Origin: a virus
Lineage: Duplodnaviria > Caudoviricetes
DNA: 38,619 nucleotides
Direction: 5' to 3' (one strand)
Virus record (IMG/VR): IMGVR_UViG_3300044858_000265
Location: 1-38,619 of that record
The position numbers and the translations under genes were made by a program. The stretch's first letter is position 1; each line of letters begins with the position of its first letter. The notes beneath the pieces were generated by a model. The model was not told the DNA's origin and made no database searches. It was given only the letters and a program-made list of their open reading frames with translations. Positions 7,332 to 22,217 of the stretch are shown in pieces.

Positions 7332-7553
7332 ATGGAATGGATACGTAAATGGATTATGCAAGCCGCTTACGATGGGGCACACCAAGCCATAACAGAACAT
7401 GTTACGGCGGATAAAGTAAAGCGCAAGCTGAATATCAGTAACGAGAACCAACTAGAGATGTTTGCCGCTGAGAAAGCACGAGCAGTGGCAATACAAAACA
7501 ATAGCTTAACCAGTGGTTTTGCTAAAGCTAAACGTGCGACCAATCGTATTTAA
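7332..7553 (+). CDS. Hypothetical protein (73 aa)
   Basis: GGAGG SD at 7321-7325; in operon. Confidence 0.75.
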   Translation: MEWIRKWIMQAAYDGAHQAITEHVTADKVKRKLNISNENQLEMFAAEKARAVAIQNNSLTSGFAKAKRATNRI

Positions 7554-7577
7554 CCCGCTCACTAAAGGAGAATATCT

Positions 7578-8546
7578 ATGAGCAATGCAATTACTCTTGC
7601 CAACGTGCAAGTTCCTTCCCACCTCGCTCAACGTGTTGGTGTTCCTTCTATCCTAGCCCAGTCATTGGCAGGCGGTATTGGTAGTGGCGAAGCTACTGCA
7701 CGTATCTCTATTAAGGGTAGCCGTTTCCGTATTGTTGAGGGCGGTACTGAGACTGTGCTTGACTCTACGTCATTGGACATTGTTGTAGTCGGTGCTAATC
7801 CACGCCTGTCTAAGACTTGGTATGCCAAGGCGTGGACACCTGAAAGCGAGCCTGCTTCTCCTGACTGCTTCTCTATGGATGGTGTATCACCTGATGCATC
7901 AAGTGTTGAACCACAGAATGACCTGTGTGCTTCTTGCCCACAAAACGCATGGGGTAGCAAAGTAACTCCACAAGGTAAACAAATCAAAGCCTGCTCTGAC
8001 CAAAAGCGTTTGGCAGTTGTATCGGCTGATGACCCAACTGGGCCTGTATACTTGTTGTCCGTTACTCCTGCCGCTTTGCAAGGCTTAAGCAAATACCAAA
8101 AGGAGTTGTCGCTCCGTGGTATCCCTGCTGAGATTGTCCGCACCCGTGTGTCCTTTGATACCGATGCATCATTCCCTAAACTGAAGTTTGACTTTGGCGG
8201 TTTCTTGGATGAAGTGACCCAACAAGAAGTTGATAGACTGTTTGGCACAGAAGAAGTTCGTCAGATTACAGGTGAGTTGCGTACGTCTGCTGCCCCGGCA
8301 GTACCAAAGATTGCCGCACCACAACAAGTTGCACCGAAGCCCGCTCCCGTAGTGGCTCAACCTGAACCTGCTCCTATCCCCGTGGCAGAACAACCTGCTC
8401 CTGCGAAGCGTGGTTTTGGTGCTCCTAAAAAGGCAGTTGCTACCCCACAGGCTAAGGCTCAGCCTGTTGCTACTGCCCCATCTGCCGCATCATTGGCTGA
8501 TGAGATTGCCGCACTTGTCGGGGAGGTAGCCGCAGATGACGCCTAA
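7578..8546 (+). CDS. Putative ssDNA-binding/annealing protein with Cys motif and Pro/Ala-rich, acidic-ended tail
   Basis: RISIKGSRF, PDCFSMDG, CASCPQNAWGS, KACSD core; low-complexity tail ending EVAADDA; strong AAGGAG SD; located between helicase and primase. Confidence 0.6.
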   Translation: MSNAITLANVQVPSHLAQRVGVPSILAQSLAGGIGSGEATARISIKGSRFRIVEGGTETVLDSTSLDIVVVGANPRLSKTWYAKAWTPESEPASPDCFSMDGVSPDASSVEPQNDLCASCPQNAWGSKVTPQGKQIKACSDQKRLAVVSADDPTGPVYLLSVTPAALQGLSKYQKELSLRGIPAEIVRTRVSFDTDASFPKLKFDFGGFLDEVTQQEVDRLFGTEEVRQITGELRTSAAPAVPKIAAPQQVAPKPAPVVAQPEPAPIPVAEQPAPAKRGFGAPKKAVATPQAKAQPVATAPSAASLADEIAALVGEVAADDA

Positions 8547-8863: not shown

Positions 8864-11728
8864 ATGGACACGCTGAGTTTTTTTCAGCGAGTACTACCAA
8901 CTGAAGGATTGTATTGCATAGCTAGTTTTGAGCAGGACAACCCTGCACCAAGACATGGTTACTTTGATTCGGTAGAAAAACTCGCACAAGTTGCACTCGC
9001 CCTAAATAGCAGGGGGCAAAACACGTACTACGCCATCTCTACATTCACAGAGAAGCGTAGGAAGCAGGAGTTCGTTGAGCGTACAAAGGTACTTGCAATA
9101 GACGTTGACTGCGGTATTGGTAAGAACGGAAAGCCAAAGCCGTTCATTGATGCAAGCGAAGGGGCCAAGGCTTTGATTGCTTTCGTCAAAGATGTTGGGC
9201 TACCCATGCCGATGATTGTGTCGTCAGGTAATGGACTACATGTTTACTGGATTCTTGATACGGCGGTAGCGCCTGCGCAGTGGAAGCCATTGGCTAACGC
9301 ATTGAAAGCGGCTTGCTTAGAGAAAGGGTTCACACCTGATATTGGTGTGACAGGGGATAGTGCACGTATTCTTAGACCGATTGGATGTGTGAATCCTAAA
9401 GGCGGTAAGACTGCGGTGTTGTTGCGTGATGCACCTGATGTAACCTACAACCAATTGTGGGCGGTACTCGAACCTTTTACTCATGGCTCATCTTATGAGC
9501 TACCTGCACAACCAGCACGTAGCAATACGTTGTTGGATGCTATGGCAGTCAAGCATGAGTATCAGCCTGCTAATGCAGAGCGAGTAGTTTCGGGATGCCA
9601 ACAAGTTAAATGGGGTGTCGAGAATCAGAACGATGTACTCGAACCCTTTTGGTGGAAGATGATGGGTGTTGCTGCCTATTGCCAAGAGCCGATAGCTACT
9701 GCAATTAAATGGAGTAAAGACTACAAACACTTTGATGAAGGTGAAGTAACCACCAAGATTGAGAACTGGAAGAACGGCGCAACAGGCCCAACACTGTGCG
9801 AGAAGTTTATGCTTGAGCGACCTGATGGTTGTAAGGGTTGTAAGTTTAAGGACAAGATTGGTAGCCCCGCAAGACTAGGTACACAACTAGCTGAAGTCAA
9901 ATCAATGGCGGCTATGGTTGACCCTCTTGCCGCAGTTGTACCAGTACCCAAGCCATTTAAACGTACCACTGATGGTATGAAGATGGTCATTGAGGAAACA
10001 GATATTGACGTATGCAAGTTCGACTTATACCCAGTGGGGTATGGCAAAGATGAAGGACTTGGCTACGAGATTGTTCGCTTTATGTGGAATCGTCCACACG
10101 TTGGATGGACTGAGTTGGTAATGCGTCAGGCTAACTTGGCGCAGGGTAGTCGTGACTTCTCTACCACAATCGCAGACCAAGGCATCCTTCTTTTTAACAA
10201 GTCACAAACGGAAAACTTCCAAATGCTTTTACGTTCATACATGGAGGAGTTGAAGCAACGCCGAGGACTAACAAACTTGTATTCATCAATGGGTTGGAAA
10301 TCAAACTACAACGAGTTTGTCATTGGTAGTTCGCTTCTACGCCGGGACTCCAACGGCACAGTCACTACTGAGCAAGTCAACTTAGCCCAAGGGGTAGGGA
10401 AAATATCTGAGGATATGTACGGCACGAAAGGCGACTTGCAAGAGTGGGTTAACTTTACCCGCATCCTTGACTCTGCTGATTTAAAACTCCACAAGTTCCT
10501 AATTGGTTTTTCATTTGCAACACCATTGCTCAAGGTCAGTGGCTTAAAAGGTTTGATTCTTTCCCTGTATGGTAAGACTGGCGGGGGTAAGACACTAGGT
10601 CAGTACATGATGCAATCCATATGGGGCAATCCTGACCAACTCCATTTCGGTGGGAAGTTCACACAGAACAGTTTGTTCTCACGCCTTTCATTGCATGGCA
10701 ACCTACCCATGACAGTAGACGAACTGACAATGCTTGACCGTGAAGAAGCAGGCGACCTTATCTACTGGACATCCCAAGGTAGGGATAAGGCACGACTTAA
10801 CCGCAGTGCAGAAGAACGAGCAACCAAAGAGTGGGCGACCACTATGACTGTATCGACTAACGAATCACTGCACAGTATGTTGTACGCAGGTGGTCATGCT
10901 ACGGACGCCAAGCTCGCTCGACTGCTTGAGTTTAATGTTGCACCGCACCCATTGTTTACTAAGGGTAGCCAAGTGGGTCGGCAGATTCACGCTTTCCTAA
11001 TGAATAACTACGGCACAGTAGGGCAAGAGTTTGTTAAACACTTGATGCCGTTGGGTATAGATGGACTAAAGGCAATGCTTGACCATGCCATCAATGAGTT
11101 CCCTAAGAAGTATGGAATTAGCTTTACTGGAGACGAACGCTTTTGGGAAGTCGGTGTTGTGCTTTCAGACTTAGGCAACCAGTTGGCTAAAGAGTATGGG
11201 CTTATCCAGTATGACTATCAAGACGCAACTGAGTGGGCACTGGGGGAACTGAAGTCCATGAAGGTATCTGCGGCAACCAATCGTATGGATGCGTTTGATG
11301 CACTGGGCGAGTTCATTAACGAGAACATGGATGCAACTTTGACTGTCATGCACACCCCCGGACAGAAGCCAATGCGGGACAACAACCGCCCATATATTGC
11401 AGACATCCTTGTGCGCTATGACTTATTCCGTAAAACCTATGATGGTAAGTTTGAGAGCGGAACAGTGCTTGTCGAAAGAACCAAGCTACGGAAATGGCTT
11501 AGCACTCGGGGCTATGACTACAAGGCGTTTATCCAAGAGTTTGAGTCAGAAGGGATTATTGCTACACCGAAATCACAGAAAGCGTACTTCGGTAAAGATG
11601 TTGGTATTAAGATTCCACAATGCTATGTGGTCGGCATCAACCTCAATCACCCACGTTTACTGGGAATCTTGGATGACGCTGACCATTCGGTAAATGACCT
11701 AACTCATGGGCAACTGAAAGTCGTTTAG
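8864..11728 (+). CDS. DNA primase-helicase (AEP/RepB-like primase + Cys-rich domain + DUF927 helicase)
   Basis: AIDVDC, SSGNGLHVYW, DSARILRP primase motifs; CEKF..DGCKGC; MGWK and Walker A GKTGGGKT, Walker B TVDE, GRDKARL. Confidence 0.88.
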   Translation: MDTLSFFQRVLPTEGLYCIASFEQDNPAPRHGYFDSVEKLAQVALALNSRGQNTYYAISTFTEKRRKQEFVERTKVLAIDVDCGIGKNGKPKPFIDASEGAKALIAFVKDVGLPMPMIVSSGNGLHVYWILDTAVAPAQWKPLANALKAACLEKGFTPDIGVTGDSARILRPIGCVNPKGGKTAVLLRDAPDVTYNQLWAVLEPFTHGSSYELPAQPARSNTLLDAMAVKHEYQPANAERVVSGCQQVKWGVENQNDVLEPFWWKMMGVAAYCQEPIATAIKWSKDYKHFDEGEVTTKIENWKNGATGPTLCEKFMLERPDGCKGCKFKDKIGSPARLGTQLAEVKSMAAMVDPLAAVVPVPKPFKRTTDGMKMVIEETDIDVCKFDLYPVGYGKDEGLGYEIVRFMWNRPHVGWTELVMRQANLAQGSRDFSTTIADQGILLFNKSQTENFQMLLRSYMEELKQRRGLTNLYSSMGWKSNYNEFVIGSSLLRRDSNGTVTTEQVNLAQGVGKISEDMYGTKGDLQEWVNFTRILDSADLKLHKFLIGFSFATPLLKVSGLKGLILSLYGKTGGGKTLGQYMMQSIWGNPDQLHFGGKFTQNSLFSRLSLHGNLPMTVDELTMLDREEAGDLIYWTSQGRDKARLNRSAEERATKEWATTMTVSTNESLHSMLYAGGHATDAKLARLLEFNVAPHPLFTKGSQVGRQIHAFLMNNYGTVGQEFVKHLMPLGIDGLKAMLDHAINEFPKKYGISFTGDERFWEVGVVLSDLGNQLAKEYGLIQYDYQDATEWALGELKSMKVSAATNRMDAFDALGEFINENMDATLTVMHTPGQKPMRDNNRPYIADILVRYDLFRKTYDGKFESGTVLVERTKLRKWLSTRGYDYKAFIQEFESEGIIATPKSQKAYFGKDVGIKIPQCYVVGINLNHPRLLGILDDADHSVNDLTHGQLKVV

Positions 11729-14700
11729 TCGGGGATGCCCGAAAGGGTTTCCTCGTCTACCCCATAGAGGCGGAGCATTTCTTTTGCTTCTGCTCTACCA
11801 CCTTTGGCGGAGGACTTAAGGGCACGTAACGCAAGTGGTTTCTGTGCTTCACGATAGGCTTGACTCAAGCCTTTCTCAAAGTTGCGAATCTCTAGGCGTG
11901 TCCCTTTGGTGCTCTCGTTCCATGACTTGATGTATTCCTTGACATCCTTCTCGGCATCAGCATCGCCTGACAATCGAGCGGCAACTGCTTGGCGGGTAGC
12001 TTCAGTCTTAATCATAGACATATATGCTTGTTCCTGTGAGTCAGCCATCAACCAGTCCATCTGTGCCTGAGCACGGGATGGATACCAACCAAGAGCCTTA
12101 CCAAGTATTTCCCAAGCAGTAGCGTTTTGCGCCACAACATATCCCTTGGTGTCAACAATCGCACCAGTATCGTAGAACTTAAACGCAGTACCCAAGTTCT
12201 TGATAGCCGTAAAGGGAGAGTCAGTCGCTAAAGAAGTTATGCCTTTACGACCTGTGGCTACGGCAGGTAATGTGTTGAACGTGTATTCAAATGCACCCGC
12301 CAAGAAAGACGTTGGTGCACCTGCAATATTTACCACCTCACGCAGAATTTCTTGCTTGGTAGCCGATGGTTTAAGCAGACCAGTTCCGGGGATTATGTCG
12401 CCAAGACCTAAGCGGTTCGAGAATGAAAGACCAGTGAAGTGGTCAAGCAAACCACGCATGATGATTGGGTTAATCTCTGCCGCTAGTTCATCACCGAATA
12501 CGCTACGGGTCAGACGAGCAAACTCTTTTTCAACCGAGCCAACCTTCAAGCCAAGGCGCTGAGCAATACCATCAACAATGTCCAAGATGTCGTCAGAACC
12601 CGGTATGCCCCGTACTCCGGATAACAAGAGCAACGACCCGAGCATGATGATACGACCTTCATAGTTCATGTTCTTCAACAACTGAACCATCAGGATTGGG
12701 TACTGCTTATACATGTAGATGAACGACTGGAGTCCACCACGGAAGAAAGCAGGGCGGTTGTACTGAGCGTAATCCCCTTGGGTAGCATCAACGGCACGAG
12801 ATGCCGCAGCACGGGCGGCAAGGTCAGCTTCATTGTGGGCTAGGCCAGCAGCACGTTGACGGTCATACTCACCACGATATGCTGCTAGGAGTGTGGTGCG
12901 GCGGTTAAATTGTTCGGAGTAACTGAATGGAAGCATCCATACCTGAATAACTTTTTGTGCGGTTGGATTGCCAGTAATCTTACGACCACGGCTAGTACCA
13001 GTCAGAGCATTAAACTGTGCCGCATCAAGGCGTTGTTCCTCAGTCATGGTTTGGAGGAAGTTCAGTTCGGCAAACGTTAACCCATCCTTGTTCCTATCTT
13101 CACCACTGTCTTGCAGTTCTTTAATCTGCCCTTTGATATAGTCTAGGTTGGAGTAGCGGAAGCTACCTGCTTTGCGACCATACTCAAACAAAAGCGTAGC
13201 GGCACGACCTGCACCTAGTCCCAAACCAAAGCCATTCTTAGGATTGAAAGCTGAGAGATACGCCCATGAGTTGGTTGGCAACGAAAGCATCTGTGTGACA
13301 CCAGTAGCAATAGAACCACCAAGTTGAGCAATAGCCGCCCAAGTACGAGCCGCAACAGACCATTCGTTGTTTGTCCAAATGTCGTCAGCATGAACAATGT
13401 CACCCGTGGATTCTTTCCAGTCGAGCAAAGACTTAGCACGTTCTTTGTACCAGTTGCCACGCTCTACACGCTTACCATCAATAACTTCAACGGCATTGTC
13501 GTAATAGAACTTCTCTTGGAAGTAGTCACGAGCGGCAATTTCTTTGGCTTCACCAGTGCTGCTTTCCCATTTAACACGGAGTTCTTCCAAGCGAGTTGGG
13601 TCGCCCTGCCAGTTGTATGGGTTGTCTAGTACTTCGTCGTACTGATGGCGGAACTCTTTGTTGGCTGCGGTATATGCCTGCTGTTCTAGGTAGGCTGACG
13701 CACTCTTGACAACATCTTTGTCCCAGCCCGGTACACCCGAACGCTTTAAGTTTGCACGGGCACGAGTGTTCTGTGCCGTAAGTTTCTGAACCAAGGTTGT
13801 CCGTTGCTCGGGAGTAATGTTAATACCCAAACGGCTTAGCGAATACATTACCTCGTCATAGTGAAGGATGTCCACAAGGGCAGGGGTCTGCTCTGCAACC
13901 GATGCAATGGCTCGCAACTTAACTGTCTGCATATTGCCATCGGCGTCACGCATATCGTGCTCACCTGCAAACAAGTTGTCCAGTTCGTCTTGAACTTCTT
14001 GGGCATCTTTTTGGTTAGCGGTCTTGCCGTAGAACAAAGAGTCTTGTTGCCCTTGGCGTAACTTAATAGGAACTTCTTGTCCGTTGACAGTCTTATAGGC
14101 TTGAATACGAATTTGCCAATCGCCTTCACGGATGAGGGGAACGTACGAACCAGCAATGGTTCGTTTGGCGTAGAACTGGTCATCATTAATAGAAGCGGCA
14201 AACATTGCACGTTCTTCAATGCGATGCTCCAATGCCCAAATAGAACTATCCCGAGTATCGTCTATATCAGGGTCTCCCTTGGTGCGGAGTTTTTTGCGCA
14301 TACCACGCACAATCGTATCAACCTCTGCGGGGGTATAGCCTTCGACCATTTTGGACAGGTCAGTTAGTGCAAAGTCAGTGTAGAACGCACGGGCAAACTT
14401 CATACGTAGCCACTCGTTGGCATCCTCTTGAGAAGCCTCGCTCATCTCAAAGCGGTTGTTCTTGTAGCCTGAATCTTTTAGGCGCATGCGGTCGTACTGC
14501 TCAACTATATCCTCAATGAACTTAGTTTCCTGTGCAGTTAGCGACTGGCTAAACGATGCACCAACACCGGAAGTAATGGCACGGGTTTGCTCGTGGATAG
14601 CACCAAGATACTTACCAATCAATACGTCAGCCGCCGACTTAGAGATAGCTTCGTGGAACTGCAAGTACACCTGATACTCAATACTTGTACCTGTGTAAGT

Positions 14701-17700
14701 CACAGTGCCATCGTCATTCTCGATTACAGTACCATCAACATCTTTAAACCAGCCAAGCGAATCCGTTAAACGAGGAGCCTCATAGGTCTTATCGTTCATC
14801 TGCTTGGTGTAGTATCGCTTGGTACTTTCCACAGTGCTGGCATATCTATTTTCAAGACGTTTAATGCGTAGTTCAAACTCTAGCTTGGCTTCTTCATTAG
14901 TAGCCGCAGCCAGTTTCTTTTGCAGACGGGCAAGTTCTCTGTCCTTACCTGCTTCCATAATGGCAAGCTCTCTGTCCCGTTGCGCAGCCAGTTCCGCTTT
15001 GTACTCCTCGGTCATTGGGCGTTCTTCCGTACCCTGTTGGACTTTAAAGCCACTACGGAATTCTTCAGGCGTCATACGACCAGCCTGTTTTAACTGGTTA
15101 AATCCGTCTACGTTTATCTTAGGTATTGGTTCAAGATTGTTAGGGTCATAGAACACAATGTTGTCCATCTTAGCAATGGCGTTATCCGACATTTGGTTCA
15201 TCTTAAACAGCGTAGCGTATGCCATCAACTCACCGGCACGGACACTTTGCTCAGCCGTTAAACCCTGTCCAAACCCAAGGAACTTAGCTTCATGGGCAAT
15301 ATTGGTCATCTCAGCATACTGAGTCTTAAGTTCAGTCTGACGAGCCGCTTGGTCTTGTAGCAACCTAAAGATATTGAAGTAGCCCTTAGACTTACGAGCC
15401 ATGTTGTCTTGAGTTTGAATACCATCAAGAACCTTTTGAACCACGTTACTTACGTTGGCAAGGACACCCTTACCTTGTTTACGCATCTCAGCAGATTTTT
15501 GTGAGGCATCCACAATATCTTGAATGGAGCGGGAAATACCACCGTAAATGGCAAAGTTGCGGTTTACAAAGTTCTGTGCAAAGTTAGCAGAACCTTGGGC
15601 AGCAGACTGGGCAAAGCGTAATACTTCAATATCAGACTGTTCAGTAGCCAGTGCTTCGCTGATTTCTTTAAACAAACCAGAGGTGTTGACTTCACTACGC
15701 CCAACGCCTTGACGCACGTACTTGCGTGATAGGCTAATAAGGTAGCGGGCTGCGTCGTCGTTGAACGACAAGCCGAGTTTATTCAACTGGTCTTTTAACC
15801 AGTTCCAAAATCTAAGGATTGTGTTATTGTCAATGGCAGCAGCACGGTCTGCCAACACCTCCTCGACTGCTTCGAGGAATGGGATTCCTTTGCCGTTCGC
15901 ATATACGATTGCCTCATTTGTGAGATGAGGGTCAGCATCGGCAACGAACTGGAGAATCTTATTAAGTGCTTGATTGCTAAACAATCCACGGAAACCTACG
16001 TGCCCAAGGGTTTCATGAGCAATGATAAAGCGAGCGTGTTCTTCAGAGTGGATGAGGTCTGCAAACAGAACCACGTTGTCACCCCAAGCCATACCTGCGG
16101 CATTGACCGCTTCAATGTCACCATCTCTACGGGCTTTTGCTGCCGCTTCAAACAGAGCAGGGTTGCTACGCTTCATGTCTTGGATATTGGCAAACACAGA
16201 TACCCGTGGCTTACGAGCGTACTTAGAAATAACTCGAGCCGCAAACAAGCGCAATGGGCCAACTTTCATTGGCGTTAAGGGTTTACCATTAGAACGGAAA
16301 GCACGCCAGTCATCATCACTGTTTGGCTTGCGGTCATAGAATGGGTCAAACTGGAGGTCATCCAGTGTGAGTTGGTCTTCCGTATCTTCCAAGTCCCGCA
16401 TATCTTTACGGGCAGTTTCGTGCTTAGCCACGAAGTCAGACTTGGTAGTCTTTTCCTCAGCCACAGTATTAGGAATAAAGTAAGACGTACCAGCAGGTTG
16501 AGTTACCAGTGGGTTGCCATTGGTGTCAAAGAAGTCTTTGATGCGACCACGCTTACCAACAAGGAAATTGTCATCGTCAATCTTAGCGTATCGCTTCTTC
16601 AACTCATTGATAAGTTGCTGCTTGTCGTAGTACTGTGGATTGGAGTCAATGAAGTTAGCAAGGCGTTCTTCGTCAGAAATCTCAGAGTTAGCCCCAATGG
16701 TTTCTCCTACCACTGCTTCTTGTGTAGTTTTTGCGCCGGGGACACGTACGTTCTTCAGTACGTTCACATCGTTTAGCAAACCAGCATCAGCCAACAGACC
16801 ATACAGGCGTGACTTCGGAGAGATGGATTCTTCATCCAATGCAATCTCACGCAGAGCAGCTACATAGTCGCCCTTCGGTACACCGCCTTCATCTGTCAAG
16901 AACTTTGTAGATGTCTTACGTAAATACGTACGGTCTGCTGAGGTTACATAAGCAGACACAATGTCGTACAACGCCTCGGCATATGCCGCTGCGTTCTTAG
17001 TTGTTTCGGCAGTCTCGATAGCCATATCGAGTTCTTCGTTGGCTGCAACTGTCTCAGCACTAGCTTCATTCGGCCCACGTTTAGGTTGGCTTTCAACCAC
17101 AGTAGGCTGAGCCGTTGTACCCATAAGTTGCCCAACCATTGCAGCCAAACCACTCGGGCCTTTCTGCAACTTGGCTGCTTTGGGTGCGGCTTCAGCCTTA
17201 GCCTCAGTCTTTTTTGCTGGGGCTTTCTTTAATGCTTTACCCCCTTTAGGAGGTGGGGGTGGAGGTGTTTCCTCAGGGGTTACTTTTTCTTTGGCTTTGA
17301 GGGCTTGACCTTTTGTGGGAGCTTTGCCCCCTTTGGTGTCTCCTTTGCGAACTTCGCTGCCACCTTTGGTTCGTTGGCGTACAGGTACTTGCGCTGGGCT
17401 TGGCTCTTGAACGGCATCTTCTGTTACCTCCGGTTGTATAAAATCCCCATCTTCAAACTGACCATCAAATACAGTACCATCTGCGTCTTCAAAACGACCT
17501 GTACCTTGTGGCTTGCCGTTCTTAAACTGCCCCGTGTATGTGGATGTATCAGAGTAAATCAGAGTGCCTTGACCATTAGGCTCACCTTTTTTCAATTGCC
17601 CTGTATATATAGAGCCATCTTCAAAAGTAATAGTGCCTGTCTTTTCTTTCTTAAGTGCCGCACCCTTAGCTGCTTCAGAAGTAACCGCAGTAACAGGTGC

Positions 17701-19977
17701 GCCTGTCGGAGCAATCTGGGTAGCGCCTTGCTGCACTGTTGGTACAACTTGTTGCTGTGTCCCTGCGCTTCTAAGAGCGGCCATAGATGGAGCGCCTTGT
17801 TGTGTAAACAAAGGCACTTGAGCACTACGGCGCAAGTCTTGAATAGGCGACACGGAAGTGGTTGGCTCAGGAAGTTGCGTACCTACACCACGGCGTAGAC
17901 CTTCAGCACGGGATGGGCGTGGGGCTTCTCTACGGCTAAACAATTCCAATTGCTGGGGTGCACGCACAGGCAACGGTTTTGTAGGAAGTTGTTGCTGTGT
18001 CTGTTGCTGTTGTGCCCGGGCAGCGTCCATAGCTTGCTGAGCAATATCCAGTTGTCGTTGGGCTTGCCCCCGTGCTTGCAATTTATTAAGGTCAGCTTCA
18101 CGCTGTGCGGCGGCTGCGGCTTGTGCTTGTACCTGAGCGTCACGGCTTTGTGCCAAGTTCATTGCCTGCTGCATAGCAGGGTTTACGATAGGTGCAGCTT
18201 GGTCAGTAAAGCCTACGCCACTAGGAGCAGGAGGCGCAAACTGCAATGCCAACTGGTTGGGGTCAGTAATCTGTTGTTGTGGGCCAATCTGAGCCGCTTG
18301 CTCTTGCGGGCTAACTTCACGCCACGACTGGGTAGTTACATCCCATACTCGTTGTGGTTGCACATTGCCCTGCATACTGCGAGCCTTGGCTTCAGCAACA
18401 GGGATACCACCGAGGTCGAGCACGCCTTGTGCACCACCAAACTGATTAGGTTGAACTTCACCTGTATAGATGCGGTCGCCCGGCGTAGAAGCACGAACGC
18501 CAGCAGCACCAGCCACAAAGTCAGGGCGTGCGCCCATACCACCTGAGGGGGTTGGCTCGCCTACGGGAGTTACTTCACGAGAGTCACTGAGGGGTGGCTC
18601 AGTAGTCTGACTTGGGTTCAACAAGTTTGTAGGTTGTTTGTTGATAGGGCCGCGTCGTAGGTTCGCACCAGCACCAATCGTTCCACCAACGCCAAAGCCA
18701 GCAGCAAAGGATTCAAGTAAACGTTTTTGTACATCGGAATCAGTAAAGTCTTGACCCGTCATACCAATGAGCAAACTTTCTTGTCCTAGTTCAGTTGCGC
18801 CTTCGGCTGTACCACCAACGATTGCGCCTTTTGCTCCTCGCTTGAGTAGTTCACCACCACGGAGAGCTTGAGTACCTAAGAATGTTTTACCCTGAATATC
18901 TTGTAGGTTGGTAGCCCCACCTCGTGCGGACAAACCGCCAGTACCAAACAAGCGGGAAGCAAGGAAGAACTCAGGTAGAGATTCGAGAAGGGCATAGGGA
19001 ACTGCGCCAGACAGAGCGGCAAGACGAGCGTTGGTATCATCAGCACCAGACCCTTGCTCACGGAACTCACCATAGATGTCAGCAGCACCAGTGGCATAGT
19101 TCTGACCTACGCTTAGAATTGTTGCACCTGCAATACCAGCCGCTTCTTTTAGCAGTTTGGTTTCAGTTGCGTCTAGTGCTTCACCTGCGGCACGTTTCTT
19201 TAAAGCCGAAATAACAGATTGTTTAAAGGCAGTCTTACCTGCCAAGCCAGCCAGTGCACCACCTGCACCAGCCAAAGGGCCACCTGCGGCAGTACCAGCA
19301 AAGAAGCCTGCGGCTGCGACACCGATAGACTCAAGAATGTTTGGGCCTTGCTGCGCAACAGTTGCAGCTAACCAGTCGATAGCACCTTTAGTTGAGTCAA
19401 TCTCTGTAAACTCACGACGGAATGGGAGGTTCTTACGCAAGTCTTCCATCTGCGTATCGACAATGCCTTGACCTGTTTCTTCAGCACCAGCAAGCTGAAG
19501 CCCACGACCTGCAAGTAATTGCAACTGGTCAACACCAATGCCAAAGTTCTTGGACATAAGACGACCAAGACTAGGGTTACGGATACCACTGGTAATTTGC
19601 CCGTATGCTTGCGGTGTAAGTGTTACCCAGTCGCCACCTTTTAGTGTTCCAACGGGGGGCTGGTCTAGCAAAGCCTCCGCACGCAGGGTCATCTCGGAGT
19701 CATCTTCGTCAAAGGTAACGCCCTGTACAGCAAGTTTTTTCTGTGATGGACTGTACTGAATAGCAGGTGGGCGTTTAATCTGCGGCAGTTCAAACTGCGT
19801 CAGCCTCTGCGCAGCAGCACCCATCGTGGCAATATCAGTCAGTCCTTTTTGAAGGGCATCTGACCCTGTACTAGCCGCAGGATTTAAGAACGTATAGCCA
19901 CTCATGTCACTGGCAAGCGACCCGCCAGAGCTAGTGTACAGTGGATTTTCAAATGACTGTGTGGCTTTAGTCGCCAT
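11725..19977 (-). CDS. Giant internal virion / DNA-ejection polyvalent-type protein (2750 aa) with MORN repeats, zincin-like metallopeptidase motif and PLxRFG-like C-terminal region
   Basis: Last gene of the structural block; AAGGTGA SD; AHETLGH..EEVLA metallopeptidase-like motif (~15840-16020); YVPLIREGDW (~14116-14146); TQGDY..NRP..F..YKQY C-terminal pattern. Confidence 0.8.
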   Translation of the reverse strand: MATKATQSFENPLYTSSGGSLASDMSGYTFLNPAASTGSDALQKGLTDIATMGAAAQRLTQFELPQIKRPPAIQYSPSQKKLAVQGVTFDEDDSEMTLRAEALLDQPPVGTLKGGDWVTLTPQAYGQITSGIRNPSLGRLMSKNFGIGVDQLQLLAGRGLQLAGAEETGQGIVDTQMEDLRKNLPFRREFTEIDSTKGAIDWLAATVAQQGPNILESIGVAAAGFFAGTAAGGPLAGAGGALAGLAGKTAFKQSVISALKKRAAGEALDATETKLLKEAAGIAGATILSVGQNYATGAADIYGEFREQGSGADDTNARLAALSGAVPYALLESLPEFFLASRLFGTGGLSARGGATNLQDIQGKTFLGTQALRGGELLKRGAKGAIVGGTAEGATELGQESLLIGMTGQDFTDSDVQKRLLESFAAGFGVGGTIGAGANLRRGPINKQPTNLLNPSQTTEPPLSDSREVTPVGEPTPSGGMGARPDFVAGAAGVRASTPGDRIYTGEVQPNQFGGAQGVLDLGGIPVAEAKARSMQGNVQPQRVWDVTTQSWREVSPQEQAAQIGPQQQITDPNQLALQFAPPAPSGVGFTDQAAPIVNPAMQQAMNLAQSRDAQVQAQAAAAAQREADLNKLQARGQAQRQLDIAQQAMDAARAQQQQTQQQLPTKPLPVRAPQQLELFSRREAPRPSRAEGLRRGVGTQLPEPTTSVSPIQDLRRSAQVPLFTQQGAPSMAALRSAGTQQQVVPTVQQGATQIAPTGAPVTAVTSEAAKGAALKKEKTGTITFEDGSIYTGQLKKGEPNGQGTLIYSDTSTYTGQFKNGKPQGTGRFEDADGTVFDGQFEDGDFIQPEVTEDAVQEPSPAQVPVRQRTKGGSEVRKGDTKGGKAPTKGQALKAKEKVTPEETPPPPPPKGGKALKKAPAKKTEAKAEAAPKAAKLQKGPSGLAAMVGQLMGTTAQPTVVESQPKRGPNEASAETVAANEELDMAIETAETTKNAAAYAEALYDIVSAYVTSADRTYLRKTSTKFLTDEGGVPKGDYVAALREIALDEESISPKSRLYGLLADAGLLNDVNVLKNVRVPGAKTTQEAVVGETIGANSEISDEERLANFIDSNPQYYDKQQLINELKKRYAKIDDDNFLVGKRGRIKDFFDTNGNPLVTQPAGTSYFIPNTVAEEKTTKSDFVAKHETARKDMRDLEDTEDQLTLDDLQFDPFYDRKPNSDDDWRAFRSNGKPLTPMKVGPLRLFAARVISKYARKPRVSVFANIQDMKRSNPALFEAAAKARRDGDIEAVNAAGMAWGDNVVLFADLIHSEEHARFIIAHETLGHVGFRGLFSNQALNKILQFVADADPHLTNEAIVYANGKGIPFLEAVEEVLADRAAAIDNNTILRFWNWLKDQLNKLGLSFNDDAARYLISLSRKYVRQGVGRSEVNTSGLFKEISEALATEQSDIEVLRFAQSAAQGSANFAQNFVNRNFAIYGGISRSIQDIVDASQKSAEMRKQGKGVLANVSNVVQKVLDGIQTQDNMARKSKGYFNIFRLLQDQAARQTELKTQYAEMTNIAHEAKFLGFGQGLTAEQSVRAGELMAYATLFKMNQMSDNAIAKMDNIVFYDPNNLEPIPKINVDGFNQLKQAGRMTPEEFRSGFKVQQGTEERPMTEEYKAELAAQRDRELAIMEAGKDRELARLQKKLAAATNEEAKLEFELRIKRLENRYASTVESTKRYYTKQMNDKTYEAPRLTDSLGWFKDVDGTVIENDDGTVTYTGTSIEYQVYLQFHEAISKSAADVLIGKYLGAIHEQTRAITSGVGASFSQSLTAQETKFIEDIVEQYDRMRLKDSGYKNNRFEMSEASQEDANEWLRMKFARAFYTDFALTDLSKMVEGYTPAEVDTIVRGMRKKLRTKGDPDIDDTRDSSIWALEHRIEERAMFAASINDDQFYAKRTIAGSYVPLIREGDWQIRIQAYKTVNGQEVPIKLRQGQQDSLFYGKTANQKDAQEVQDELDNLFAGEHDMRDADGNMQTVKLRAIASVAEQTPALVDILHYDEVMYSLSRLGINITPEQRTTLVQKLTAQNTRARANLKRSGVPGWDKDVVKSASAYLEQQAYTAANKEFRHQYDEVLDNPYNWQGDPTRLEELRVKWESSTGEAKEIAARDYFQEKFYYDNAVEVIDGKRVERGNWYKERAKSLLDWKESTGDIVHADDIWTNNEWSVAARTWAAIAQLGGSIATGVTQMLSLPTNSWAYLSAFNPKNGFGLGLGAGRAATLLFEYGRKAGSFRYSNLDYIKGQIKELQDSGEDRNKDGLTFAELNFLQTMTEEQRLDAAQFNALTGTSRGRKITGNPTAQKVIQVWMLPFSYSEQFNRRTTLLAAYRGEYDRQRAAGLAHNEADLAARAAASRAVDATQGDYAQYNRPAFFRGGLQSFIYMYKQYPILMVQLLKNMNYEGRIIMLGSLLLLSGVRGIPGSDDILDIVDGIAQRLGLKVGSVEKEFARLTRSVFGDELAAEINPIIMRGLLDHFTGLSFSNRLGLGDIIPGTGLLKPSATKQEILREVVNIAGAPTSFLAGAFEYTFNTLPAVATGRKGITSLATDSPFTAIKNLGTAFKFYDTGAIVDTKGYVVAQNATAWEILGKALGWYPSRAQAQMDWLMADSQEQAYMSMIKTEATRQAVAARLSGDADAEKDVKEYIKSWNESTKGTRLEIRNFEKGLSQAYREAQKPLALRALKSSAKGGRAEAKEMLRLYGVDEETLSGIPD
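11731..11754 (+). terminator. Possible terminator/pause hairpin at the convergence point, embedded in the 3' end of the giant gene
   Basis: GGGGATGCCC-GAAA-GGGTTTCCTC (GNRA loop, G-U pairs, one mismatch) starts 2 nt after the primase TAG; no U-tract. Confidence 0.35.
17280..17417 (-). CDS. Nested (+1 frame) small basic protein, 45 aa, MPFKS-type
   Basis: GGAGGT SD (17426-17431) 8 nt before ATG 17417; MPFKSQAQRKYLYANEPKVAAKFAKETPKGAKLPQKVKPSKPKKK-TAA; lies entirely inside the 2750-aa CDS. Confidence 0.7.
   Translation of the reverse strand: MPFKSQAQRKYLYANEPKVAAKFAKETPKGAKLPQKVKPSKPKKK
17441..17640 (-). repeat. MORN repeats (two full 23-aa units plus flanking partial units) within the giant protein
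   Basis: TGTITFEDGSI / YTGQLKKGEPNGQGTLIYSDTST / YTGQFKNGKPQGTGRFEDADGTV / FDGQFEDGDF fits the MORN pattern YxGxxxxGxxxGxG. Confidence 0.85.
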
Positions 19978-19985
19978 AATTCACC

Positions 19986-22217
19986 TTACCTGACTACTTG
20001 TTGGGGAGGATTCACGGTACTCCAAATACTCCTATCTACTCCGGAAACTTGTTGTGCAACTACTCCAAGGTCAACTTTAGCACCATTGATAGTGGCTGTT
20101 TTATTTTGTCCATCAATCACAAACACATCGCCTAAACCGTTGGAGTAATAGGCTTTACCATCGCCAGCACCAGAGCCAATAAGTTTAAAGCCAGCCAATT
20201 TAATTTTTTCCTCAGCCAGTTTGGTATTACCTTTGAGGATTTCAAGCTGAATCTCACGAGCAGAACGTAAAGTTTCTTCACTAGCTTTCTTACGAATTTC
20301 TTCATCAGTATCAAAGCGTTTTGCGCTACGCTCAATTTGTAGTTTAGCAAGTTGTTGGCGGTAATCTGTATCCACTTGCGTACGAACAAGTTGCTCGACC
20401 TGTGGCCCTTCAAGACCAGACTTAGCAACCTTGCCGTTAATATACAAATCAAACTTGCCATCGTTACGGCTAAGAACTTGATGCGGTGCACCAGTAAAGG
20501 TAGACAATACAGACATAGCACGGCTAAAGTTACCAGTCGTTGCGCCCTCATAAAGCCCGATGTCTGCTTGGTTCTTGTACATACCAAGGTCAATAGCTTG
20601 AATCTTAGCCGCAGCTTCTATGGCTTTGTCACCCATACCATACTGATTGTAAAGAGCTACTTGCTTTTGCAACATAGCACGAGTAGTTAATAACTGTTGG
20701 ATTTGCGGATTGCGGGCACTTGCGTCAATCTGAGCAGGGCCATACATCACACCATCTTTAGCAGGTTGTACTGGTACAGCAGTAGACGCAGCAGTTGCCA
20801 CATCTTTAGGTGTACCTGTGTTTACCGCTTGAGTAACTGTTTGAGCTTGAGTAGGTACTGGCGGAGCTTTTCCAGTACTTGCTGTAACAATTGGCGACTC
20901 TTTGTTAAAGCCGAGCGCAATGCCTGTGTCAATGATTTGAGCATTATATGGGTTCTTTCCGTTTTCAAATTGAATGATAGAAGTAACCAACTGACGCATA
21001 ACTGCTGCATCTTTGAGATTTATTGTGTCAGTGGGTTTAACACCTAATTCTTTTGCGACTTGATTTATATATGCACCTGTCTTATTTTCAGACGGAGGTG
21101 CCCAGCGATTAATAATTCCTTGTACTGTGTTAATACCCTGCTGGTCATAAGACAACAGGTTTAACGTCATGGCACGGATACCTGCTTCAGGTGAAGCAAA
21201 TTGCACAAAGCCTGCGGCTTCTTTCGCACCTTTATCAATCCCAACCTGACCTTGCCATGTGTACTGAGTGCTAGGACGGATATTGCCGGGGTTGTTATTT
21301 ACTAGACCACGTACGGGTTTACCCTTAGCATCCAGTTGCCAGTCTTCCAAACCTTGCTTCTGGGCGACCTCTGCATTTTTAACACGCTCAGTTTCTACTG
21401 CTTTTGCTTTAGTAGCTTCGCCTGCTTTTAAACGCTCGAGTAATTGTGCTTCAGTAACTGGTTGAGTAACTTGTTGGGTACTACTAGACATACCGCGCAA
21501 TGCTTGGTTCGCCATAGGTGTAAAGCTACCATCCCCAACAAGAGGAAGTAAATCTTGCCTAGTTACATTTTGGTCAATAAGACCAAGGCTGCGTCCAATA
21601 CCAGTGACGTTTGCTTGTTCTCCAAGCCAGTTTACACCACGAGCAGCAAGGTTGTAAGGGCCAGCCGCAATGTCGTACGCTCCACTGGCAAGATACCCAG
21701 CGGCAAATACAGGAGCTTTGGCTACACCACCAACGGTACGAGCAGCGTTTAAATCCTGTAAGCGTTGCCGTCTTGCTTGTGGAGACAGAGCTTGAAACTC
21801 AGCAGCAGTCAACTGGTCAGTTGGTATAGAAGCCAGTTGTGCAGGAGTACGCAACCCCGCAGCAGGTGCAGCCGGAAGTGCAGTTGTAGGTACATTTGCA
21901 GGAGGTGCAACAGGCGTAGACGTAGCAGACGCAGGTGCAGCAGCCGGAGCAGGTGCAGGAACAGGTGCAGGAGCAGGTGCAGTAGGTGCATTGGGGTTAC
22001 CAATAACTGTACCCGGAGTCTGCACAAACTGTGGCAGTGGAGCGTTAGCTATTTCATTTGTACCTTCGCCCATACGGGCACGAATCTCCATAAGGCGATT
22101 AGCCTCTTGGATTCGCATCAAGTTGCCACGTTGCTCAATCTCTGCGTTTTCAGCTTGTCGCTGACGACCCGCAACAATACCAGCACCACCGATTAATTGC
22201 CCAAAGTTAAGAGCCAT
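19986..22217 (-). CDS. Internal virion (ejection) protein with lysozyme-like peptidoglycan hydrolase domain
   Basis: RGLVNNNPGNIR...FVQFASPEAGIRAM...TVQGIINRWAPPSENKT..Y...IIQFENG (~20950-21310) is a phage virion muralytic-like motif; AAGGAG SD. Confidence 0.75.
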   Translation of the reverse strand: MALNFGQLIGGAGIVAGRQRQAENAEIEQRGNLMRIQEANRLMEIRARMGEGTNEIANAPLPQFVQTPGTVIGNPNAPTAPAPAPVPAPAPAAAPASATSTPVAPPANVPTTALPAAPAAGLRTPAQLASIPTDQLTAAEFQALSPQARRQRLQDLNAARTVGGVAKAPVFAAGYLASGAYDIAAGPYNLAARGVNWLGEQANVTGIGRSLGLIDQNVTRQDLLPLVGDGSFTPMANQALRGMSSSTQQVTQPVTEAQLLERLKAGEATKAKAVETERVKNAEVAQKQGLEDWQLDAKGKPVRGLVNNNPGNIRPSTQYTWQGQVGIDKGAKEAAGFVQFASPEAGIRAMTLNLLSYDQQGINTVQGIINRWAPPSENKTGAYINQVAKELGVKPTDTINLKDAAVMRQLVTSIIQFENGKNPYNAQIIDTGIALGFNKESPIVTASTGKAPPVPTQAQTVTQAVNTGTPKDVATAASTAVPVQPAKDGVMYGPAQIDASARNPQIQQLLTTRAMLQKQVALYNQYGMGDKAIEAAAKIQAIDLGMYKNQADIGLYEGATTGNFSRAMSVLSTFTGAPHQVLSRNDGKFDLYINGKVAKSGLEGPQVEQLVRTQVDTDYRQQLAKLQIERSAKRFDTDEEIRKKASEETLRSAREIQLEILKGNTKLAEEKIKLAGFKLIGSGAGDGKAYYSNGLGDVFVIDGQNKTATINGAKVDLGVVAQQVSGVDRSIWSTVNPPQQVVR

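Follow-up and report, generated by a model that had tools for sequence, protein, structure and literature searches.

A small basic gene nested in a giant phage gene occupies a slot whose occupants are exchanged

The closest described counterparts of the gene reported here are embedded genes of other tailed phages. A survey of spanins lists 182 embedded two-component systems and found that none of its families combines embedded with non-embedded members (PMC6139136). Like lambda Rz1 within Rz, the gene described below is a complete small gene located on the same strand inside another phage gene and overlooked by gene callers; unlike Rz and Rz1, whose products form one complex, it is also common as a stand-alone gene, is swapped or deleted, and moves between distant host genes. 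For genes 91 and 20 of mycobacteriophage Patience, out-of-frame embedded ORFs on the same strand were shown to be translated (PMC4324244). These share with our gene its strand arrangement and the presence of a ribosome-binding site, but are described there as having no close database relatives and ambiguous conservation, whereas our gene belongs to a large family and is under purifying selection.

The window, by which we mean the whole stretch of DNA analyzed, is a linear 38.6-kb virus record with a completeness of about 70%, and freshwater metagenomes hold DNA near-identical to it. Replication genes occupy its plus strand and the virion module its minus strand, where a giant gene hosts the small one (Table 1). 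The first-pass annotation of the window had claimed that a GGAGGT site and an ATG 8 nt downstream of it open a 45-codon frame inside the giant gene, in the +1 phase and right after the MORN repeats. All of these elements were present, and the encoded peptide was as quoted. The ORF, which ends with a TAA codon, is complete, has an initiation signal of its own, and lies entirely within another ORF of the same strand. It starts at giant residue 854, directly 3' of the MORN repeats, whose best Pfam stretch covers residues 814-836 (PHROG 7324 matches residues 776-844). The MORN block is present or absent among close relatives of the giant; since it is missing in many of them, it is not part of the slot. 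A scan of positions 16800-18300 revealed no sigma-70-like internal promoter and, on the coding strand, no terminator. No stable RNA structure was found at the nested gene (z 0.95), and coverage in RNA runs was sparse (seven small contigs in four runs).

Table 1. The nested gene, its host gene and neighbouring features of the window.
Feature	Position	Strand	Remark
Giant gene (2750 aa) at the end of the internal-virion cluster, host of the slot	11725..19977	-	Polyvalent/DarB-like
Conserved C-terminal domain of the giant	11881..13044	-	PHROG 11358; used to sample relatives independently of the peptide
HEXXXH-type motif, zincin-like peptidase candidate, downstream of the linker	16000..16017	-	Motif form in PMC5512222
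Nested small gene, MPFKS family (F)	17280..17417	-	45 aa, strongly basic
3' swap boundary, last Lys codon and stop	17280..17285	-	Loose end at 17285, runs X2 and X4
5' swap boundary	17413..17417	-	L relatives identical through the ATG and two bases, then diverge
Shine-Dalgarno site GGAGGT	17426..17431	-	8 nt spacer to the nested ATG
MORN-repeat segment, directly upstream of the slot	17446..17652	-	Pfam MORN
Upstream neighbour with transglycosylase domain, ejection-cluster context	19986..22217	-	Domain match

The giant is likely an ejection protein, i.e., a virion protein that is injected. Like polyvalent or DarB-like proteins (PMC5512222), it is very large, is encoded in the late region, and contains a HEXXXH peptidase-type motif, which was kept in six of six aligned giants; a zincin-like peptidase motif in a late-gene context is one mark of a phage polyvalent protein, and two or more recognised effector or LPD domains are another. 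Unlike in the polyvalent proteins described in that work, no effector domain is recognised in the giant of the window, MORN being its sole Pfam match. The host giants of nested genes fell into three BLAST groups, two of which gave DarB-like or polyvalent-type matches, and relatives of the window's giant matched the DarB-like PHROG 10089 and, weakly and below the cut-off, LPD39 and ART-PolyVal. The main text of PMC5512222 does not contain the word 'overlap', and in the open-licence literature we found neither an exchange of unrelated occupants nor one family that is nested, stand-alone and fused.

We refer to the MPFKS-type family of the nested 45-aa peptide as F. Out of 140 candidate proteins of 24-79 aa, 134 matched the peptide at E<=0.01 (best non-self match, 3e-13), and the nested ORF is therefore not a product of chance. 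A profile search collected 4,421 clusters at 50% identity. No Pfam family matched the peptide; PHROG 1375, which is without a curated cut-off, matched weakly (E 2.7e-4, 22 bits, residues 3-35), and several longer F homologues matched it at a similar level. A DUF3008 identity, based on an atlas lead at 0.86 only, was rejected, with 0 of 121 members matching at E<=1. The peptide is also not an embedded spanin, as its 45 aa include neither Cys nor a hydrophobic signal and the lysis genes are about 11 kb away.

A family of stand-alone small proteins had been named in the first-pass annotation, and such homologues were sought and found. Stand-alone F is annotated in the cultured phages 023Pt_psg01 and Streptomyces phage Vorvolakos; it is unannotated in P-RSP2 (L001:6001), S-CBS2 (L002:6001) and C75C1 (L003:6001), and an F homologue also lacks annotation in several Gordonia phage records. 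Among the matches examined, no nested copy was found in a cultured phage; peptide searches gave only stand-alone copies and one metagenomic GenBank record. Among 80 viral loci fetched with the peptide, 29 have F within ORFs of more than 1000 codons. GenBank record MW202828.1 (L326:9001) has an unannotated F nested in a gene of 3859 codons that bears the label 'reticulocyte binding/rhoptry protein'. One giant (locus L056) has two F-like copies, at 7479-7655 and 8001-8183, the upstream one lacking a start codon at the expected position. Elsewhere (L057, L061, L070, L354, L360, L400 and L408), F is nested in the same phase near the N-terminus of 280-440-codon ORFs, and at loci adjoining primase and ribonucleotide reductase genes (L023, L054, L060, L067 and L072), an upstream ORF of 120-145 aa enters F in the same phase and ends inside it. 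Soil Acidobacteriaceae and Verrucomicrobiae MAGs include long contigs with a conserved F subfamily (L363, L367 and several of L375-L411); the sole soil-contig locus inspected, L386, had no evident phage genes.

When the outer-frame sequence was used to fetch relatives, ten loci were obtained. Three contained F, and seven contained, at the same position, a different basic family of 58-60 aa, each member behind an SD-like site. This alternative occupant, termed L, matches PHROG 2423 (E 9.6e-8); its match to Pfam DUF6496 (17.6 bits, E 0.005) is below the 24-bit gathering cut-off, and L is hence called DUF6496-like only. Homology between F and L was not detectable (hhalign probability 11%), and our literature search found no paper on DUF6496. 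The nesting of the families to which F and L are linked by profile matches (PHROG 1375, and PHROG 2423/DUF6496, respectively) is unannotated.

Occupancy of the slot was determined in 228 loci that were selected by conserved giant domains and not by the peptide. After 73 of these were dropped (5'-truncated or under 1800 aa), the remaining 155 formed 129 clusters. Since the seeds bore F (eight of nine) or L, the occupancy fraction applies to these lineages. F was present in 75 of the 129 giants and L in 22, while 32 had neither by profile, two of the latter containing a divergent F. All 97 nested copies are in the +1 phase and start with ATG, GTG or TTG; an SD-like motif precedes 92 of the 97, compared with 819 of 14291 (5.7%) other +1 ATG/GTG codons. 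The idea of a widespread dual-coding gene that gene callers overlook was borne out; F or L is nested, unannotated, in 97 of 129 giants. Of the outcomes that the first-pass annotation had named as refuting it, a lack of stand-alone homologues and related giants without the SD/ATG or with stops in the +1 frame, neither was obtained. The two families were never found together in one giant (0 of 155), while about 13 of 129 would be expected if they were independent. Two of the empty slots are in-frame deletions. A search of the 32 empty giants for decayed relics gave a single match, which is an intact divergent F. Records with an empty slot had F elsewhere in one of 29 cases overall and in none of 11 that are near-complete; we therefore conclude that the nested gene is dispensable. 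Four cultured isolates with distant giants (one gene seen in part) had neither F nor L. Three giants without F or L share a +1 ORF of 32-35 aa, starting with MSKP, at giant residues 558 (L267), 518 (L280) and 553 (L283). It is basic and Pro-rich, lies behind a GGAGG site, and is a possible third occupant of the slot. More SD-led basic +1 ORFs are found at residue 1300 of L267 and residue 1326 of L283.

Selection on the two reading frames was studied in alignments of close relatives, the constraint on synonymous sites of the outer frame having been named earlier as a point to check. Among four close F-bearing giants, outer third positions were variable at one of 46 slot codons and at 1474 of 2704 codons elsewhere (p 1.6e-14); in the L-bearing set, the corresponding values were three of 57 and 1766 of 2706. 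No window elsewhere in the gene was as low in outer third-position variation (0 of 2611 in the F set, 0 of 2545 in the L set). In the F slot, variation is shifted to outer first positions, which are the wobble sites of the peptide. Substitution classes were then counted over the first 27 codons in 21 disjoint close F pairs. Changes that are silent in the peptide but alter the giant occurred at 0.082 per possible change, those altering the peptide but silent in the giant at 0.0136, and those altering both at 0.0159. Inner-frame dN/dS was about 0.2, and the small frame is under purifying selection. Per opportunity, peptide-silent, giant-altering changes are thus five to six times commoner than peptide-altering ones; therefore, the giant's amino acids at the slot are close to neutral, and its frame only has to stay open. 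Taken together, we regard the nested gene as real with very little doubt.

The requirement for an open outer frame is visible in comparisons with stand-alone copies. Stops in the outer phase are present in none of 34 nested copies and in 78 of 97 stand-alone copies, and the Phe3 codon is TTC in 61 of 61 nested copies versus 55 of 89 stand-alone ones. In the other phase, no long ORF extends over any of 139 pattern-located F copies (159 viral and genome loci), and the phase in use is the one with more stops by default. The outer-frame reading of the slot is an acidic linker with few hydrophobic residues, and the advantage of the phase used may be that it yields an acidic outer segment poor in large hydrophobic residues. 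The AVQE/AIQE segment that had been noted for giant phage proteins is real and corresponds to this outer reading.

The occupants of the slot are swapped repeatedly. The closest L allele joins the flanks immediately behind the start codon and at the stop; it is 13 codons longer than F and keeps the outer frame. A loose end at 17413, the 5' boundary, was found in runs X4 and X18, and F and L alleles co-occur in lake samples X2 and X4, which come from two studies. On a quick ML tree of 78 giants, in which several branches are long, 20 changes of slot state were counted, where the minimum is 2 and shuffling gives a mean of 30.1. At locus L108, the giant is 79% identical to the window's giant in the C-terminal domain, while its cassette DNA is 60% identical to that of the window and 86% identical to cassettes of group-2 giants; this type of cassette is shared with another group whose giants align only patchily. 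The high identity to cassettes of a distant group indicates that cassettes move between distant giant genes. The idea that two genes flanking a small intergenic gene had fused into the giant found no support: among the loci covered, no giant adjoins a stand-alone F except at L316, where a distant stand-alone copy lies downstream of the giant. The first-pass annotation had inferred a real overprinted gene. A real gene under selection it is, but not an overprinted one in the strict sense: F forms a large family in its own right, and it is the outer reading that lacks constraint, so the nested gene is an inserted, exchangeable cassette and did not arise de novo. A de novo gene confined to the outer lineage is likewise rejected by the 4,421 clusters, many of which are stand-alone or fused.

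AlphaFold predicts two helices (residues 6-15 and 17-26) and a disordered basic tail for the F peptide (pLDDT 83), and two helices, longer than those of F, for L. For neither F nor L did Foldseek find a PDB match at E<=0.001, and BFVD matches to the nested protein were uncharacterised proteins only. PDB HMM matches were repeat artefacts of designed propellers, and an Arc-repressor match of L (E 0.0014) covered one helix and was not accepted. The toxicity data considered from PMC7474061 list no homologue.

Both families also occur as N-terminal modules of proteins of the head or of injected proteins, which suggests that the products are accessory, prohead-associated basic proteins. F begins at residue 3 or earlier in 92 of 104 longer homologues, and in 73 of 76 of a second set. 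Its fused cargo is mostly unrecognised (74 of 81 longer homologues have no Pfam match) and includes MuF, three lysozymes and InPase, the last of which is listed among phage-type polyvalent protein domains (PMC5512222). In the AP22 head maturation protease, residues 1-39 are an L module (25 bits, against at most 4.3 after shuffling). A KxA motif is located within 16 residues after F in 29 of 76 longer homologues and recurs in the tails 34 times versus 15.3 in shuffled sequences (0 of 200 as high); a Glu-type motif after F was not enriched (53 of 200 shuffles). Either motif would be a candidate prohead-protease cleavage site. The internal proteins of T4 are small, basic, dispensable head proteins with a capsid-targeting sequence. 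Like this sequence, F is an N-terminal module on unrelated cargo, followed by a candidate cleavage motif; unlike it, F comprises about 40 residues, has a predicted two-helix fold and is also a free protein, and the two are likened by arrangement alone.

Genomic context of the family favours a head-associated role, to which we lean on balance. A virion or packaging gene lies no more than 4 kb from stand-alone F at 15 of 28 loci. PB1-like phages carry L as a stand-alone gene flanked by head-morphogenesis and protease genes, and a member of this family, KPP22 ORF084, carries the record annotation 'virion protein'; the E217 structure paper contains no mention of gp20-22. Patience gp10, a distant F homologue, is encoded in the portal-protease interval, alongside small basic virion proteins; it scores 10-14 bits against the F profile, and its homology is transitive through Barnyard gp9, which scores 30 bits and is 70% identical to gp10. 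Four very basic small genes of Patience, 111, 10, 11 and 12, lie between portal and protease (L332:3726-4789), and for three of them 30-33 particle spectra each were reported (PMC4324244). DNA binding or core assembly, as proposed originally, is a plausible candidate function of the F product. Since F and L are undetectably related, equal function is assumed from the common slot.

The same context has a second side, and we see an appreciable, if minor, chance that the product of this swappable nested gene is instead a non-structural protein that binds nucleic acids or ribosomes in the infected cell, nesting serving only late expression. F copies occur in replication modules (among replication genes at at least five of 28 stand-alone loci), L of phiCbK lies among tRNA genes, conserved copies reside on long Acidobacteriaceae and Verrucomicrobiae contigs, and the strongly basic, predicted two-helix fold would suit such a protein. 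In the supplementary data on Patience, gp10 spectra are also more numerous in infected cells (four early, two late) than in particles (one; PMC4324244, Table S1). A non-structural role is opposed by the N-terminal position of F on MuF, lysozymes and InPase and of L on the head maturation protease, and by frequent placement between portal and capsid or protease genes.

We consider it improbable that the peptide serves the giant protein as a dedicated partner or chaperone, in the manner of Rz1 and Rz. Embedded spanin pairs provide the precedent (PMC6139136), and nesting in giants does persist across three BLAST groups; however, near-identical giants have an unrelated family or a deletion instead, the same type of cassette is found in giants that barely align, and the majority of family members occur without a giant. 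Slightly less probable still is a leader function, in which ribosomes would start at the nested ATG and shift -1 into the giant frame, producing an F-tagged C-terminal two-thirds of the giant. F does serve as an N-terminal module in other proteins, and in the window the last codons of the nested ORF specify Lys and an A_AAG tetramer precedes the stop. However, an in-phase slippery heptamer is present in only 15 of 97 copies and the 3' ends are unconserved, a re-initiation codon is found near the stop in 10 of 97 copies versus a 38% background, and the RNA at this site does not fold stably; conserved frameshifting or re-initiation was not supported on these counts. Finally, a functionless hitchhiking cassette, or the shadow of a conserved outer-frame motif arising by de novo overprinting, would agree with the absence of the gene from about a quarter of giants, but this very improbable reading is largely refuted by the slot's third-position variation and substitution classes (a constrained inner frame, outer amino acids free to change), and is further opposed by the outer-phase stops of stand-alone copies and by empty giants devoid of relics.

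In the reading we prefer, a tolerant linker of the giant gene accommodates a complete small gene, kept by selection, as an exchangeable cassette, and its alleles would be exchanged by recombination in common flanks. Translation of the small protein would probably start on the late mRNA at a Shine-Dalgarno site of its own. Nesting would give late, structural-operon expression with no need for intergenic space. That this translation yields a basic protein destined for the assembling head is, in our view, somewhat probable. The product would enter the head as an accessory internal protein and represent, in free form, a module found at the N-terminus of prohead or injected proteins in other phages; the module may bind the prohead interior or packaged DNA. 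More tentatively, linkers of this kind could be a standing gene-in-gene insertion site, with dual-coding cassettes that are stop-free in the host frame circulating among unrelated giant genes; the occupants (F, L and perhaps a third family) would be free forms of general prohead-targeting modules, which many tailed phages would also use as N-terminal tags for loading enzymes into heads.

What is known of embedded genes in tailed phages mainly concerns fixed pairs. The position described here acts as an exchangeable slot, in which about three quarters of sampled giant genes hold an unannotated gene and two unrelated families substitute for each other at start and stop codons. Gene overlaps can thus arise when a gene inserts into a linker that tolerates it, and the DAVQE segment, an oddity of many giant phage proteins, is the shadow of another gene. 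The findings also suggest what two unnamed families of very large size may do. If true, a portable head-targeting module would be relevant to the loading of proteins that phages inject.
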